From contig JBFWVL010000001.1 in the NCBI GenBank assembly GCA_050246755.1, forward strand, positions 160,001 through 224,000: a stretch of 64,000 nt of DNA. Direction: 5' to 3'. Numbering within the stretch: position 1 is the stretch's first letter; the number at the start of each line of letters is the position of its first letter. The notes under the pieces are model-generated. The model saw only the letters and a program-made list of their open reading frames with translations, was not told where the DNA came from and did not search any database. Made by a program: the position numbers and the translations under genes. Shown piece after piece: positions 59,068 through 64,000 of the stretch. The stretch comes from Bacteriovoracia bacterium (GTDB taxonomy: Bacteria > Bdellovibrionota > UBA1018 > CAIPTA01).

Positions 59068-59343
59068 CTACTTCACCTTTTTTGCTTTGCCTTTTTTGCC
59101 CTTGTGGTGCTCGGGGTGGCCGCAACCGCAATCTTTTCCTGGCGCCATCGCATCGGCCTTCTGCTCACTGCAAGATCCGTTTTCCATCCCGCAAGAATGC
59201 TCCGCTCCGCCGCAGCCGCAGCCCTCGCTGATTTTCTGGGCCTGCATATTGGAATCCGTTAAGCCATTGCTCACTACGTCGCCGCCTTTTTGCGCGCAGC
59301 CAGTTAACGCCAAGCAAACCAGCGCCGCTAATAAAAACTTCAT
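59068..59343 (-). CDS. small Cys/His-rich lipoprotein
   Basis: LTGC lipobox, CGCG..EH motif twice, Lys-rich tail; ATGA overlap with the upstream gene. Confidence 0.75.
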   Translation of the reverse strand: MKFLLAALVCLALTGCAQKGGDVVSNGLTDSNMQAQKISEGCGCGGAEHSCGMENGSCSEQKADAMAPGKDCGCGHPEHHKGKKGKAKKVK

Positions 59344-60260
59344 TTTATCTCCTCTGCAGTATGAAAAAAGAACTGCATATTTAATTGGCAAACATCTTTA
59401 CTATCGTCGTCACAGAAATCCTTATCGAATTTATCACGGAACTCGCGAATGGCTTTCTTAATTTCGGGCAATTTTTTACGGCTCACTCGTAACGTCAGGC
59501 AGGTAAATTCCCGGTCCGTCATCGGCTGACGCTGCAGAGCCTCCTTAGCCTGGTCCATCTGCTCGCTATGATGTTTCCTCACCGCGGCGGAAGGAATATC
59601 GGCCATGGTAATCAATGATTCTGATCCATTCGCCAACCTTAGTTTTCCGCCGGCATCGCGTTCAATTAATTTGAGGCGCTCGAGCAATTCCAAGGAAGTC
59701 ACTACCTCCTCTACGCTCACCTTGTTTCCCAGCTTCGCAGCAATCCATTCAGGCGAGTCCTTAAAGCCTGGCGCCGAAAATAACTGGCGGATCACGTAGT
59801 GGTGCCAACCCGACACGTAACTAAATACTTCGGTATCAATCGCCTTTCGACGAATCAATTTAGGATTCAGCTTCAGCAACTCATCCGCAATCGCCTTGGG
59901 CACGTTACCCTTGTGTTTTTCTTTTCTAACCAGCAGTTCGAAATAGCGGCGCTCGGCTTCCGAATGATCTAAATCCATGGAAAAAGCCAAAATCAAATCT
60001 TCCGAAGGCAGTCTTTGCCCTTTGAGCACCATCGCGATGCTGCGGGGAGAACGATAATTCAATTTTTTCGCCCAGCGCTCCAGCGTAATTGGGCGCTTCA
60101 GGCCGGGATAGTTACAGCGAACGTGATTGAGGTAATTGCGAAAGTCGTCGAATTCAAACACGGTCATAGCTTCAGGCGTCTCGAGTGCGGGGTAAGAGTT
60201 TCCGCGCTGGTTCCAGGTCGGTTGAAGGTCGGTGTCAGTAAATAGTTTTATTGCTTCCAT
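59340..60260 (-). CDS. TIGR02147/DUF4423-family HTH protein
   Basis: VF.FDDFR.YL, VLKGQR.P, YVSGW.H..IR, QLNMQFF; start uncertain. Confidence 0.85.
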   Translation of the reverse strand: MEAIKLFTDTDLQPTWNQRGNSYPALETPEAMTVFEFDDFRNYLNHVRCNYPGLKRPITLERWAKKLNYRSPRSIAMVLKGQRLPSEDLILAFSMDLDHSEAERRYFELLVRKEKHKGNVPKAIADELLKLNPKLIRRKAIDTEVFSYVSGWHHYVIRQLFSAPGFKDSPEWIAAKLGNKVSVEEVVTSLELLERLKLIERDAGGKLRLANGSESLITMADIPSAAVRKHHSEQMDQAKEALQRQPMTDREFTCLTLRVSRKKLPEIKKAIREFRDKFDKDFCDDDSKDVCQLNMQFFFHTAEEIK

Positions 60261-60457
60261 GCCCCTAGAATCAGCCAGGCAGCCCAAATCCTCTAGCAAC
60301 ATAGCGCCTTCGGCGGAGCGGGAAGCGTAAATGGCGCACATCCTGTGCGCCGATCTCAGGATGGCCGATTTTGGCGGATTGCACAATAGCCCCACTAGAA
60401 AACATTGCTCCGGCTTAGAAAATTGAATTTCTCCCCCGAAAATGCCATAGCTGAAAC

Positions 60458-61357
60458 ATGCCCTCTAAATACGAAAGTGCCATGACTATGGCCATTAATG
60501 CGGCCGAAAAATTCCATGGTGCCACCACTCCACTTCCTCCCGCGGGCGCCATCGCGCTCGACAAAGGCGGCAAAGTTCTCCTCGGAGCGGCACTCCAGTC
60601 GGCCGAAAGCCCTTCCGCCGAAGCAAAACTTTTAGATTTAGCGCAAAAGCTCGGCAAATTGGCCACGATCGAAACCCTGGTCTGCACTCTCGAGCCCGAA
60701 GCCGAGCTCATTTTGAAGCATAAGAATATTCGCCGCGTGGTGCTCGGCGCGAAGAATCCAAAAGGCGGGACCGCGATCGAAAAACTGCGCAAGGCCGGAG
60801 TGGAAATCCTGGAAGGAACGGTTCAACAAGAATGTGAATTCCTCATCCGGGCCTTCACAAAATTCCAGCGCACCGGAAAGCCCTACGTCACGCTCAAGGG
60901 TGCATTCACCACCGAGGGCGCACAAAAAGCACTCAGTTCCAAACCCTCGCTTATTTTTTCCCACGAGCTCCGCCGGCGCTGCGATGCCATCTGGACCTCC
61001 AGCGGCACCGTGCTCGCGGAGAAACCCGATCTATCTGTGTCCTGGGTTCCTGACCATCCGCAAAAAAAGCGCCAGCTCGTTTTATCCGACCGCCGACGAC
61101 GAATACCCCCTGAGTGGATAGCCCGCACTAAAGCCAGCGGCTTTACTGCTCCCCACTTTGCCGAAAGCCTAGAGCAAGGGCTAGAATTCCTCGGCAAAAA
61201 AAATGTTTTAGAAGTGCTCGTAGAAGCAGGCCCTACGCTGCGCGACGCATGGCTAGAAAGCGGTCTTTGGGACGAATCTGTGGTATTTCTACAAGGCGAA
61301 GGCGACGCTGACGACGAGATCGATATTCAGTTTCGCCATGAAACAGGAGAAGACTGA
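60458..61357 (+). CDS. ribD: RibD-like deaminase/reductase, catalytically degenerate
   Basis: P.PPAGA, TLEP, PYVTLK, LR..CDAI and VEAG match RibD; HxE reads SAE and the PCx8C zinc motif is absent. Confidence 0.75.
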   Translation: MPSKYESAMTMAINAAEKFHGATTPLPPAGAIALDKGGKVLLGAALQSAESPSAEAKLLDLAQKLGKLATIETLVCTLEPEAELILKHKNIRRVVLGAKNPKGGTAIEKLRKAGVEILEGTVQQECEFLIRAFTKFQRTGKPYVTLKGAFTTEGAQKALSSKPSLIFSHELRRRCDAIWTSSGTVLAEKPDLSVSWVPDHPQKKRQLVLSDRRRRIPPEWIARTKASGFTAPHFAESLEQGLEFLGKKNVLEVLVEAGPTLRDAWLESGLWDESVVFLQGEGDADDEIDIQFRHETGED

Positions 61358-61977
61358 TGTTCACTGGCACGATTGAGCAAACCGGAAAAATTATCAGCAT
61401 CGACGACCGCCGCGGCCAGCGCCGCATCGTAGTACAGACCCGATGGGAAGATTTAGCCTTAGGTGAGAGCATATCTCTAAACGGGGTGAGTCTCACAGTG
61501 GCCGAAGTTACCTCCCAGCATCAGGCTCAATTTTTACTCAGCGAGGAAATCCTCGAGCGCACCACGCTGAATAAGCTAGAACCGGAAATGAAAGTAAATC
61601 TCGAGCGCGCCCCCACTCCCTCCACTCGCCTCAGCGGCCACTTCGTTCAAGGCAGCATCGACGCCAAGGGCCTCATCCTCAATTTGGTGGAATCCGAAGG
61701 CGCGCACAAATTGACCGTGGCGCTCGACGCCAAGTATGGCCGCTACTGCGTGGAAAGAGGCTCGATCGCAATTGAAGGCGTAAGCCTAACGATCCATTCG
61801 CTCACCGAAACCAAGCTCAACGAATTCATGATCACCTGCGCGATCGCTCCCCAAGTTTGGAAAAATACGAATTTCTCGAACTTGAAAATTGCCGATGCCG
61901 TGAACGTAGAAGTGGATGTGCTCGCCAAGTACATCGAAAAACTGAATCCCCAACTCGCTTTGACGCCCGCGAACTAG
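61357..61977 (+). CDS. ribE: riboflavin synthase-like protein, divergent
   Basis: MFTG start, NGVSLT, VNLERA, GH.VQG, VNVEVD..AKY. Confidence 0.85.
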   Translation: MFTGTIEQTGKIISIDDRRGQRRIVVQTRWEDLALGESISLNGVSLTVAEVTSQHQAQFLLSEEILERTTLNKLEPEMKVNLERAPTPSTRLSGHFVQGSIDAKGLILNLVESEGAHKLTVALDAKYGRYCVERGSIAIEGVSLTIHSLTETKLNEFMITCAIAPQVWKNTNFSNLKIADAVNVEVDVLAKYIEKLNPQLALTPAN

Positions 61978-61980
61978 CGT

Positions 61981-62427
61981 ATGCCGGGCACTACCTTCGT
62001 TCCCTGCTCCAACTGCAATAAGCTCAATCGCGTGAACCTCACGCAGGCGAATGAGAAGGAACCGGTTTGCGGGCATTGCCGCACCACGCTTCCGCTTCAC
62101 TTCGGGGTGGTAGAGGTAAATGAACGTGGGCTAAAGGTACTCACCGAGAAAAGCTCACTGCCCGTGTTTTGCGACTTCTGGGCCCCCTGGTGCGGCCCCT
62201 GCAAAGCCTTTGCGCCAACCTTCCAGCAACTCGCGCTGCAATACGGTGGCCGCATTGTGTTCGCGAAACTAAATACGGAAGCCTATCCTATCGGTGGGCA
62301 GGCCCATCAAGTGCGCAGCATTCCCACTTTGATTTATTTTCAAGGCGGAATAGAGAAGGAGCGGCTCTCGGGGGCACTCCCCGCTTCCCACCTCACTCAG
62401 TGGCTCGACGCTAAATTATCTTCGTAG
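61981..62427 (+). CDS. trxC: thioredoxin 2 with N-terminal zinc finger
   Basis: CxxC...CxxC plus DFWAPWCGPC. Confidence 0.93.
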   Translation: MPGTTFVPCSNCNKLNRVNLTQANEKEPVCGHCRTTLPLHFGVVEVNERGLKVLTEKSSLPVFCDFWAPWCGPCKAFAPTFQQLALQYGGRIVFAKLNTEAYPIGGQAHQVRSIPTLIYFQGGIEKERLSGALPASHLTQWLDAKLSS

Positions 62428-62431
62428 AAAT

Positions 62432-62472
62432 AAAAAAGCCTCTCGGTTTCCCGAGAGGCCCTTTTACTTTTT
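62432..62472. terminator. bidirectional terminator
   Basis: aaaaaa-gcctctcgg-tttc-ccgagaggc-ccttttacttttt. Confidence 0.85.
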
Positions 62473-62481
62473 CGGCTGCCG

Positions 62482-64000
62482 TTAGAGCCTGCCGCCGGTG
62501 AGCGCAGGTACGCTCATCGTGGTTCCGAACTGAACGGGATTGGTGAAACCGGCGCCGCCGTATCCAATCGATCCGCCGGTATAGTACGAACCCTGCATTT
62601 GTCCCATTACTTGTCCGTAACGATTCTGGGCCTCGCTCAGAGCTTGGGCCGCCACTTGTGCATCTTGGGCTAGCACTGCTTGCTGCTGAGCCTGGCGCAT
62701 CTGCGCCTGGGCCTGCAACTGCTGCTGTTGGTAGAATGCGCCCAGGCCGCCGCTATTGTACTGGCTGTTGATATTCGACATCCACGGATTATAGCCGCTT
62801 AGGCCTCCGTAGTTGTTCGTGTTGAAACCGTAGCCAGGGTTGGCGTAGGGATTCTGTACTCCTGGGTAACCGAAAGGCGATCCAGGAATTTGTCCCATGC
62901 CGGGGTAGCCGATTCCGGGGCTAGGGTAACCGCCGACTCCGGGATATCCTCCCGGAAAGCCGCCTCCCACGTAACCACCGCCGTAGCCGCCACCGGCGTA
63001 AGGCATCCCAATTCCAAACGGCGAGAAAGATCCACCCCCGTAAGGAACGCCGTAAGCTCCGCCACCTATCGGGCTAAATACGGAGCCAATACCAGCGCCC
63101 ATGGCGTACGGCATTCCGCCCATTGCGTAGGGAGCATAACCGCCGCCGCCCATCGCGAACGGACTAAATACGGAACCGATCCCCGCGCCCATCGCGTAGG
63201 GCATTCCCATGCCCATGGCATAAGGCATTCCGCCCATTGCGTAGGGAGCATAACCACCACCGCCCATCGCGAACGGACTAAATACGGAACCGATCCCCGC
63301 GCCCATCGCGTAGGGCATTCCACCCATCGCGTACGGCATCCCCATCATCCCGCCCATGGCATAGGGCATTCCAAATCCACCGCCGAAGCCACCACCGCCC
63401 ATCGCGAACGGGCTAAATACGGAGCCAATACCAGCGCCCATGGCGTACGGCATCCCCATGCCGAACGGCATTCCAAATCCACCACCAAAGCCACCGAAAC
63501 CGCCGCCGATTCCCACGCCGAAACCGCCGCCGCCGAAACCGCCATTGCCGCTTCCGTTCATGAACATAGAAGACATCATGGCCGGGCCAAGGAAGGAGCC
63601 CATCAAGCCCCCGTAGCCTTGCGGAGGAGCCGAGGGCAAGCCAAGCAAGGTATTGTTGGCGTTATAATAGCGATAATCGTTGCTCTGGAACTGCGCGCCT
63701 TTGTAGGCACCGTAGAGCCCCATGGCTCCAAGACCAAGCGGAGTGGCCGCTCTCAGCACGTCGGCGAAACCTTCCCAGCCGGATTTACCTTGCTGAGGAG
63801 GGCCTTTACGGCCGGAGCAATTTCCATCCGGGCAATCATCCGACTTTTTTTCGGGAGTGCTGCTGAGCCGTTCAATGGCGTCTTCGGCTTTCTCTATTTT
63901 TTCGCCGTACGTTTCGCGATCTTCTTTTGCCTCATTCAGGCGCCTCTTCAAAGCATCGCGCGTGTCTTTCGCCGAGTTATAGCGGCCTTCCCATTCGTCC
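62482..64000 (-). CDS. large Gly/Met/Pro/Tyr-rich repeat protein (5' end outside the window)
   Basis: Frame stays open to the window end (DEWEGRYNSAKD...); coiled coil, then repeats, then a Gln-rich tail. Confidence 0.85.
   Translation of the reverse strand, partial: DEWEGRYNSAKDTRDALKRRLNEAKEDRETYGEKIEKAEDAIERLSSTPEKKSDDCPDGNCSGRKGPPQQGKSGWEGFADVLRAATPLGLGAMGLYGAYKGAQFQSNDYRYYNANNTLLGLPSAPPQGYGGLMGSFLGPAMMSSMFMNGSGNGGFGGGGFGVGIGGGFGGFGGGFGMPFGMGMPYAMGAGIGSVFSPFAMGGGGFGGGFGMPYAMGGMMGMPYAMGGMPYAMGAGIGSVFSPFAMGGGGYAPYAMGGMPYAMGMGMPYAMGAGIGSVFSPFAMGGGGYAPYAMGGMPYAMGAGIGSVFSPIGGGAYGVPYGGGSFSPFGIGMPYAGGGYGGGYVGGGFPGGYPGVGGYPSPGIGYPGMGQIPGSPFGYPGVQNPYANPGYGFNTNNYGGLSGYNPWMSNINSQYNSGGLGAFYQQQQLQAQAQMRQAQQQAVLAQDAQVAAQALSEAQNRYGQVMGQMQGSYYTGGSIGYGGAGFTNPVQFGTTMSVPALTGGRL
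63065..63480 (-). repeat. intragenic coding repeats (MPYAMGAGIGSVFSP x4 plus further MPYAMG units)
   Basis: Visible in both the translation and the DNA. Confidence 0.9.

Follow-up and report, generated by a model that had tools for sequence, protein, structure and literature searches.

What keeps two riboflavin-synthesis genes open in a bacterium that appears to have given up making riboflavin? The question is raised by a locus in a 64,000-nucleotide (nt) stretch from a Bacteriovoracia bacterium (GTDB lineage Bacteria; Bdellovibrionota; UBA1018; CAIPTA01; NCBI GenBank assembly GCA_050246755.1, contig JBFWVL010000001.1, forward-strand positions 160,001 to 224,000), referred to as a whole as the window. 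Here ribD' and ribE', homologues of the riboflavin genes ribD and ribE that have lost the residues of their reactions, are followed directly by the thioredoxin gene trxC. From sequence comparison and structure prediction, the proposal that RibD' and RibE' are kept as non-catalytic pseudoenzymes with a protein-level role stands, in our judgement, evenly balanced between true and false. The parts of the locus, in window coordinates, are as follows.

60458-61357, + strand: ribD', an open reading frame (ORF) of 299 amino acids (aa); RibD homologue whose deaminase site is dead and whose reductase substrate site is altered; fold and VEAGPTL cofactor motif kept.
61357-61977, + strand: ribE', an ORF of 206 aa; riboflavin-synthase homologue with two lumazine-binding barrels and a C-terminal helix.
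61981-62427, + strand: trxC, an ORF of 148 aa; trxC-type thioredoxin, CxxC...CxxC zinc finger at the N-terminus, active site WCGPC.
61975-61983, + strand: ribE'-trxC junction (TAG, 3 nt, ATG); the place of ribBA and ribH in same-genus genomes, so that it marks the deletion.
62438-62459, + strand: terminator-like hairpin of 9 pairs, 7 of them GC, then a T-rich tail; closes the three-gene unit.

The stop of ribD' and the start of ribE' overlap as TGATG, and the trxC ATG lies 3 nt past the ribE' TAG stop; the ORFs are thus as the initial annotation of this DNA had described them, two intact overlapping frames and then trxC. A consensus scan placed no terminator-like site on the + strand between the three genes. 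The same scan called the hairpin, which is weak by itself, as the region holds 5 terminator-like sites against 5.2 expected from shuffles. The promoter scan of 59300-62700 was uninformative, giving 1 sigma-70-like site (61158-61187, inside ribD') against 1.9 expected from shuffles. The sole canonical gene remaining in the operon is trxC: its translation shows CSNC...CGHC and WCGPC, the motifs of TrxC, and matches Pfam Thioredoxin with 82.4 bits, while its score against the TrxC family NF008229 (116.2) is slightly below the cut-off of 125.

RibD' was aligned to the RibD of E. coli, that of T. maritima and other solved RibD, and to 20 RibD from related genomes. The zinc of RibD is described as held by one His and two Cys (PMC10366380). 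In RibD' the zinc His is replaced (PHAE to PSAE), and a 9-residue deletion takes out the PCx8C loop with both Cys, so that all three zinc ligands are lost, as the annotation had held from SAE in place of HAE. The motif DPNPxV is cut down to NPK. The SMIPPxG loop is lost to a 6-residue deletion, with KALSS now in place of KTFTS; the annotation's statement that an SKWIT segment is missing was right for this preceding loop and too strong for the stretch itself, which is altered and not wholly missing. The conserved reductase Asp is replaced by Glu (LADxP to LAEKP). This is the meaningful part of the LADDP-to-LAEKP change that had been pointed out, as only the first Asp is conserved in the clade.

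Columns at least 97% invariant in the canonical family members (69 RibD rows and 72 RibE rows) were counted as invariant. RibD' has changed 27 of 106 such columns and kept 79, compared with a mean of 0.81 changes per canonical row; all 27 map to either the deaminase site or the substrate loop of the reductase, with no change past residue 195. Its RibD_C domain (PF01872) is recognised by Pfam with 52.5 bits against a cut-off of 24.1, and its deaminase domain, with 20.9 bits, is below the cut-off of 25. Against the curated RibD equivalogs it reached 96.9 for TIGR00326 (cut-off 156.35) and 76.7 for NF008052 (cut-off 500). By zinc site, reductase substrate loop, Asp and equivalog score RibD' falls outside bifunctional RibD, and the reductase domain fold is present. 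The AF2 model had a predicted local distance difference test score (pLDDT) of 95.9, and its best Foldseek matches were RibD/RibG, with template-modelling (TM) scores of 0.7-0.8. The canonical RibD of the class (loci L007-L029; P0003-P0120) is itself a short form of about 315 aa, compared with 367 in E. coli; its reductase domain is shortened, yet it sits within complete rib operons.

RibE' was aligned to solved riboflavin synthases and 29 RibE from related genomes. It keeps MFTG, and NGVCLT has become NGVSLT, E(T/S)L EIL, QGHVD QGSID and PHTW PQVW, so that the retained MFTG, the NGVSLT and QGSID variants and the replaced Thr of ETL and PxT, all claimed before, were borne out by both solved structures and relatives. 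Residue by residue, the changes are Cys45 to Ser, His100 to Ser, His166 to Gln, Thr167 to Val, the ETL Thr to Ile, Asn147 to His and Cys197 to Asn. The columns of Cys45, His100, His166 and Thr167 are at least 97% invariant in the 72 canonical RibE rows; the ETL position alternates between Thr and Ser there and is outside the invariant set. Altogether 10 of 74 invariant columns are changed and 64 kept (canonical row mean, 0.43 changes). Judged from these alignments, the loss of invariant residues in RibD' (27) and RibE' (10) is far beyond chance. We take Cys45, His100, His166/Thr167 and the ETL Thr to be the counterparts of E. coli Cys48, His102, Thr165 and Thr67. Mutant data and roles of E. 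coli riboflavin-synthase residues are reportedly given by Illarionov et al. 2001 (J Biol Chem).

The fold of riboflavin synthase is still recognisable in RibE', by its two barrels, MFTG, C-terminal helix and score; the active-site residues and the pathway are gone. Pfam Lum_binding matches twice (117.6 bits), and the scores pass both NCBIfam riboflavin-synthase cut-offs (NF006767, 179.7 against 155; TIGR00187, 162.5 against 156.6). The AF2 model had a pLDDT of 91.1, with helices at 188-196 and 198-201, and Foldseek returned riboflavin synthases first and lumazine proteins next. RibE' retains VDVLAKY, the motif of the C-terminal helix through which riboflavin synthases trimerise. It also retains GxSLT in each of its barrels, together with Ser38, Thr47, Ser143, Thr145 and Glu185, and given these residues RibE' may still bind a ligand.

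The C-terminal tail of RibE' is also altered. Canonical RibE of the family ends in ERLCPQ...PS with an invariant Cys, which is Asn in the window (tail at 61945-61977), Ser in P0121 and Ser in P0184. Elsewhere in bacteria, RibE uses its C-terminal peptide to dock into lumazine-synthase cages (PMC13376624); by analogy, the loss of ribH may have freed the tail of RibE'.

Does the rest of the genome still make riboflavin? The organism's own assembly comprises 3.55 Mb in 10 contigs and is 95.69% complete. No match to ribH (PF00885) or to ribB, the DHBP synthase gene (PF00926), was found anywhere in it by searches in which each of the 14 control genomes scored. The initial annotation had noted that ribBA and ribH are missing and had proposed a look for canonical rib genes elsewhere in the genome; the absence holds across the whole assembly. 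The sole lumazine-binding protein of the genome is RibE' itself, and RibF is present. Lacking ribH and ribB and having ribF, the organism is, on its gene content, a riboflavin auxotroph that needs imported riboflavin. For Bdellovibrio bacteriovorus, riboflavin auxotrophy was likewise predicted by modelling (PMC7529429), and the literature searched yielded no paper on riboflavin synthase in Bdellovibrio. Neither an FMN riboswitch (RF00050) nor a PnuX-type transporter (PF04973) had a match in the genome, other riboflavin transporter families not having been searched.

Two further proteins of this genome resemble riboflavin enzymes. The sole PF00925 match, a 421-aa GTP_CH_N plus GCHII protein, was considered as ribA and rejected, as it adjoins a DUF1688 gene; it could not make riboflavin anyway without ribB and ribH. 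In its locus (G000:C5:94533-97985, L001) the gene lies directly upstream of DUF1688 and downstream of an aldehyde-dehydrogenase-like frame, and NCBIfam would name it 'GTP cyclohydrolase II'. We presume the GTP_CH_N+GCHII/DUF1688 pair to be of the URC1/URC4 uracil-catabolism (pyrimidine-degradation) type. The other (G000:C3:199509-200141, L004) is a stand-alone RibD_C-type 'pyrimidine reductase family' protein of 219 aa, whose scores fall short of every NCBIfam cut-off (106.5 against 186.45).

How the three genes came together was examined in 41 genomes of the class, including the window's own (G000). A RibE homologue is present in 38 of them, and ribH and ribB in 36, mostly in the row ribD-ribE-ribBA-ribH. 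The five other same-genus genomes are all canonical, and their RibD is 59-62% identical to RibD'; comparisons within the genus rest on 58-65% protein identity, with synonymous sites saturated. In three of these genomes, G001 (L040), G004 (L037) and G005 (L039), a trxC orthologue stands directly behind ribH as the fifth gene of ribD-ribE-ribBA-ribH-trxC (58-61% identity in G001 and G004; 52% over 62 residues in G005, whose contig ends inside trxC), and G002 and G008 have no trxC at the rib operon. We know of no earlier description of trxC as a fifth riboflavin-operon gene. From the order of genes in the three relatives it follows that ribD'-ribE'-trxC is this five-gene operon from which ribBA and ribH have been deleted, bringing trxC up against ribE'. 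The junction is also found in X4, a wastewater-metagenome run, in which a 3182-nt contig spans 59025-62202 of the window, departs from it at 272 letters and in 4 small gaps (8.6%), and crosses from ribE' to trxC without a large gap.

Upstream of the window's trxC start there is no Shine-Dalgarno-like motif. The trxC of G001 has GGAG before its start, and in G006 the trxC start and the ribE' stop overlap.

Five genomes are without ribH and ribB: G000, G006, G007, G011 and G036. G006, of another genus, has a degenerate ribE' only (Cys to Gly, His to Ser), with a trxC orthologue directly behind; tblastn with 8 RibD queries recognised no ribD remnant 5' of this ribE' (best E=0.074). G007, which has no ribE, has no full-length trxC orthologue.

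Dead forms of both proteins recur in the family. With the window included, the zinc site is gone in 6 of 118 RibD rows (window, P0002, P0006, P0054, P0058, P0059), P0010 being partly altered, and RibE is degenerate in 6 of 118 rows (window, G006, P0121, P0123, P0158, P0184). A RibE tree was built on 40 rows after 14 trait columns had been dropped. It placed the window, P0121 and P0123 in one clade (97/83) next to the canonical P0122, which is 76% identical to RibE'; P0158 grouped with P0133, also canonical, and P0188 was the partner of G006. The approximately unbiased (AU) test rejected a single clade for all six degenerate RibE (p=1.7e-7) and also for the five that are left when G006 is set aside (p=2e-4), p-values that are weakened because the groups were named after the first tree had been seen. 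These trees call for three or more origins of dead RibE within the family. In the RibD tree, P0058 pairs with the canonical P0066 (approximate likelihood-ratio test, aLRT, 96), apart from the other dead rows. The proteins of the dead-state clade are 56-72% identical to those of the window and all of full length.

The same sites changed repeatedly. Thr167 is Val or Ile in all six dead RibE rows, Asn147 is changed in all six, His100 is lost in 5/6, and Cys45 gives way to Ser, Gly or Arg in 4/6; repeated changes are also seen at Phe60, Ser38 and Leu162. The symmetric ligand-site Thr of the two barrels are replaced by Ile/Val, in five of the six rows at ETL of the N-barrel and in all six at HTW of the C-barrel, which argues, if anything, against canonical lumazine binding. 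The reductase Asp and the substrate loop are altered in each of the six degenerate RibD. Such clustering of changed sites at the active sites is the pattern expected if only the constraint specific to catalysis is lifted and the fold is still selected.

Dead rib genes and trxC also seem to go together outside these genomes, as TrxC homologues lie on contigs equal in size to those carrying dead rib genes: 2981 nt (P0006/P0123, P0246), 10938 nt (P0054) and 1697 nt (P0158/P0261). The 2981-nt and 1697-nt contigs are too short for ribBA-ribH, which places trxC right behind the dead ribE' in both.

The X4 contig allowed selection on ribD' and ribE' to be estimated. Its proteins P0002 (RibD') and P0121 (RibE') have the same dead sites as the window's and are 91% and 94% identical to them in aa: of 299 RibD' positions 26 differ and 1 is a gap column, and of 206 RibE' positions 12 differ. 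Most of the differences are conservative, such as Ile/Val or Ser/Ala. The upstream gene nrdB differs between window and X4 by 49 letters in 1053 nt, and 34 of the 35 differences among those listed are synonymous, which gives a synonymous divergence (dS) of about 0.18-0.27. Minimal nonsynonymous counts of 32 (ribD') and 15 (ribE') give nonsynonymous divergences (dN) of 0.049 and 0.032, and dN/dS (omega) is then about 0.18-0.27 for ribD' and about 0.12-0.18 for ribE', with dS borrowed from nrdB as a proxy.

Neutral simulations pointed the same way. They were run from the window's codons at d=0.086, the regional mean divergence and a conservative choice; 0/2000 runs had so few aa changes, and a stop was acquired in 91% (ribD') and 77% (ribE') of runs. 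RibD' fits neutrality only at d=0.0465, which is the overall divergence of the highly constrained nrdB and not a neutral rate. Relative to the window, X4 carries +2 nt at 60761 and then +1 nt at 60771, 10 nt apart, which together restore the ribD' frame. The short stretch between them is read in another frame, NPKGGTAI in the window and YPAKEGITA in X4. By these estimates, purifying selection has acted on ribD' and ribE' throughout the last approximately 9% of DNA divergence, in a relaxed form but clearly. The annotation had spoken against simple decay; the low omega values relative to the 91%/94% identical proteins and the recurrence of dead forms in several lineages agree with it.

The explanation we favour runs as follows. 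An ancestral ribD-ribE-ribBA-ribH-trxC operon belonged to a Bdellovibrionota lineage giving up riboflavin synthesis, in which riboflavin would presumably be obtained from prey and converted by RibF. A deletion of ribBA-ribH joined trxC to ribE', and ribD' and ribE' remained. Both proteins have lost the residues of their reactions, yet are full-length and predicted to fold, and they would be co-expressed with TrxC. The most likely role, as read from the retained parts, would be the binding of a small molecule or a partner by the RibE' barrels and by the NADPH-side, C-terminal half of RibD'. The predicted RibD'+RibE' complex scored 0.00 against a mark of 0.32, a result with no bearing for or against binding. 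The initial annotation had already proposed a repurposed pseudoenzyme pair. The missing catalytic residues, the absent pathway and the conservation support that part, and its further suggestion of a role in flavin or lumazine binding, sensing or scavenging stays conjectural. It had overlooked both the origin as a deletion remnant and the possibility that the frames are kept for trxC.

A wider version of this explanation can also be formulated, which we regard as speculative and probably wrong as a whole. RibE', usually with RibD', and TrxC would be a module that evolved repeatedly in riboflavin-auxotrophic Bdellovibrionota, in which enzymes left without substrate were converted at least three times, by the same site changes, into non-catalytic binders. 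They might capture or buffer flavins or pterin-like compounds of the prey, or act as a redox-linked partner of TrxC. Pseudoenzymes would then have arisen naturally, and more than once, out of a vitamin pathway.

Several observations weigh against a protein-level role. The auxotrophic genomes G007, G011 and G036 have no ribE altogether and G006 has no ribD, so that the proteins are dispensable in some lineages. The branches of degenerate RibE are about 4-5 times longer than that of the canonical sister, and constraint is therefore much relaxed, not abolished. A single origin of dead RibD' was not rejected (AU p=0.164). The omega values take their dS from nrdB and not codon by codon from ribD' and ribE'. 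The protein searches covered called proteins of 164-524 and 113-361 aa only, and broken copies would escape them. The AF2 alignments of both proteins consisted mostly of canonical homologues, which makes the high pLDDT weak evidence of folding, and no RNA run holding the stretch was found. Finally, dead rib genes always have trxC downstream where this is checkable (G000, G006 and the 2981-, 10938- and 1697-nt contigs), which fits their retention for trxC.

This last point leads to the main rival, a possible explanation that we nevertheless hold to be somewhat unlikely. In it ribD' and ribE' form a translated leader for trxC: the frames have no function and are kept open since trxC would lack its own promoter and ribosome-binding site and depend on transcription and translational coupling through them, and the aa conservation reflects selection against misfolding or toxicity of a polypeptide made in any case. 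The reading arises from the position of trxC, 3 nt behind the ribE' stop and with no Shine-Dalgarno-like motif of its own, and it accommodates the lack of a + strand terminator-like site between the genes, the finding of trxC directly behind dead ribE' in every checkable case, the joint absence of ribE and a full-length trxC orthologue in G007 and the 4-5-fold faster evolution of degenerate lineages. It accounts less well for an omega of 0.12-0.27, which is low for a functionless protein, and for the 64 of 74 and 79 of 106 invariant columns still kept. Moreover, ribBA-ribH was cleanly removed, and ribD was removed in G006, with trxC kept in place, so that useless frames should in time go too; and the released sites take similar residues in independent lineages, such as Val or Ile for Thr in 6/6.

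That the two proteins are still enzymes with residual or altered activity, RibE' dismutating lumazine scavenged from prey and the reductase half of RibD' using another substrate with NADPH, seems improbable to us. Purifying selection, the passing of the riboflavin-synthase cut-offs, and the retention of MFTG, both GxSLT, Ser38, Thr47, Ser143, Thr145 and Glu185 in RibE' and of VEAGPTL with the whole C-terminal half in RibD' would all suit such an activity. Lumazine dismutation also runs uncatalysed (PMC10366380). The genome, however, encodes neither lumazine synthase nor DHBP synthase as a source of substrate; the catalytic Cys position varies freely (Ser, Gly, Arg) even among close relatives; His100, His166 and Thr167 are gone from RibE'; and RibD' has its zinc loop deleted, with the reductase Asp and substrate loop changed in all degenerate RibD.

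Neutral decay of young pseudogenes that by chance are still without stop or frameshift, a reading already disfavoured, would explain the lost catalytic residues and partner genes, the several in-frame deletions, the long branches and the auxotrophic relatives without the genes entirely, but it is very hard to credit when both frames are still open in two genomes whose DNA differs by about 8.6% and whose proteins are 91% and 94% identical, none of 2000 simulated runs had so few changes and 77-99% of runs gained stops, dead-clade proteins only 56-72% identical to the window's are yet full length, and the +2/+1 insertions 10 nt apart restore the frame.

We next compared RibD' and RibE' with known systems. 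RibE' is a direct descendant of bacterial riboflavin synthase (RibE/RibC; TIGR00187, NF006767; PDB 1I8D, 1KZL, 4E0F, 7WUO), as seen in its two Lum_binding barrels, MFTG, C-terminal helix and ancestral operon position; it differs in lacking Cys45, His100, His166, Thr167 and others, in a genome without lumazine synthase. RibD' has the two-domain fold and the operon position of RibD/RibG (TIGR00326; PDB 2G6V, 2B3Z, 2HXV) and differs in lacking the zinc ligands and the reductase substrate loop, in the Asp to Glu change and in a score far below the cut-off. Zinc-less deaminase domains are reportedly also present in the plant PyrR-type RibD homologues of Hasnain et al. 2013 (Plant Physiol.), in which the reductase half is said to be active and the pathway complete; in RibD', by contrast, the reductase signature is changed and the pathway absent. 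The stable RibD-enolase complex of Francisella (PDB 9NO2), for which PMC11908141 describes a role independent of catalysis, is a precedent for a non-enzymatic RibD; the Francisella RibD is catalytically active, unlike RibD'.

A known parallel to RibE' is the group of lumazine, yellow and blue fluorescent proteins of Photobacterium/Vibrio, non-catalytic riboflavin-synthase relatives that only bind lumazine, riboflavin or FMN; they are described as monomers with a single N-terminal site that serve luciferase (PMC6279958). These proteins (PDB 3A35, 3A3G, 3DDY) match the RibE' model with a TM score of 0.79. RibE' is, however, a recent offshoot of its own family's RibE, at 76% identity to P0122 and only E=3e-6 to LumP; it retains the trimerisation helix and sits in a rib/trxC operon.

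Around the operon, the opposite strand 5' of ribD' carries a TIGR02147/DUF4423 gene (59340-60395), with nrdB further up. At 59068-59391 (-) lies a predicted small lipoprotein of 107 aa, with a signal peptide and Cys lipobox, a Cys/His/Gly-rich body (CGCGG...CGCGH) and a Lys-rich tail; it has no Pfam match, and its composition suggests that it may bind metal. On the other side, 62482-63999 (-) encodes a large secreted-looking protein, also with no Pfam match, with a charged coiled-coil-like N-terminus, then extended repeats rich in Gly, Met, Pro and Tyr (GMPYAMGAGIGSVFSPFAMGGGG units) and a tail rich in Gln. In G002 and G006, genes resembling it face the rib operon in convergent orientation.

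The literature searches, with most subscription journals outside their reach, returned no report of dead RibD/RibE pairs in bacteria and nothing relevant on Cys48 or His102 of riboflavin synthase, and among the riboflavin pseudoenzyme papers listed none was on dead RibD/RibE by title or abstract. Since ribE' passes the cut-offs, annotation pipelines would call it 'riboflavin synthase', and a part of the pathway could be wrongly assigned to the genome in metabolic reconstructions. The usual view of gene loss in auxotrophs is that the function goes and the gene then decays; here two genes outlive their pathway as conserved dead proteins. If they are kept only for the expression of trxC, operon architecture would hold useless frames, and even folds, in place. 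If the new role is true, these lineages would be a replicated natural experiment on the origin of pseudoenzymes, and RibE' would join the lumazine proteins as a second branch of the riboflavin-synthase superfamily that is non-catalytic.

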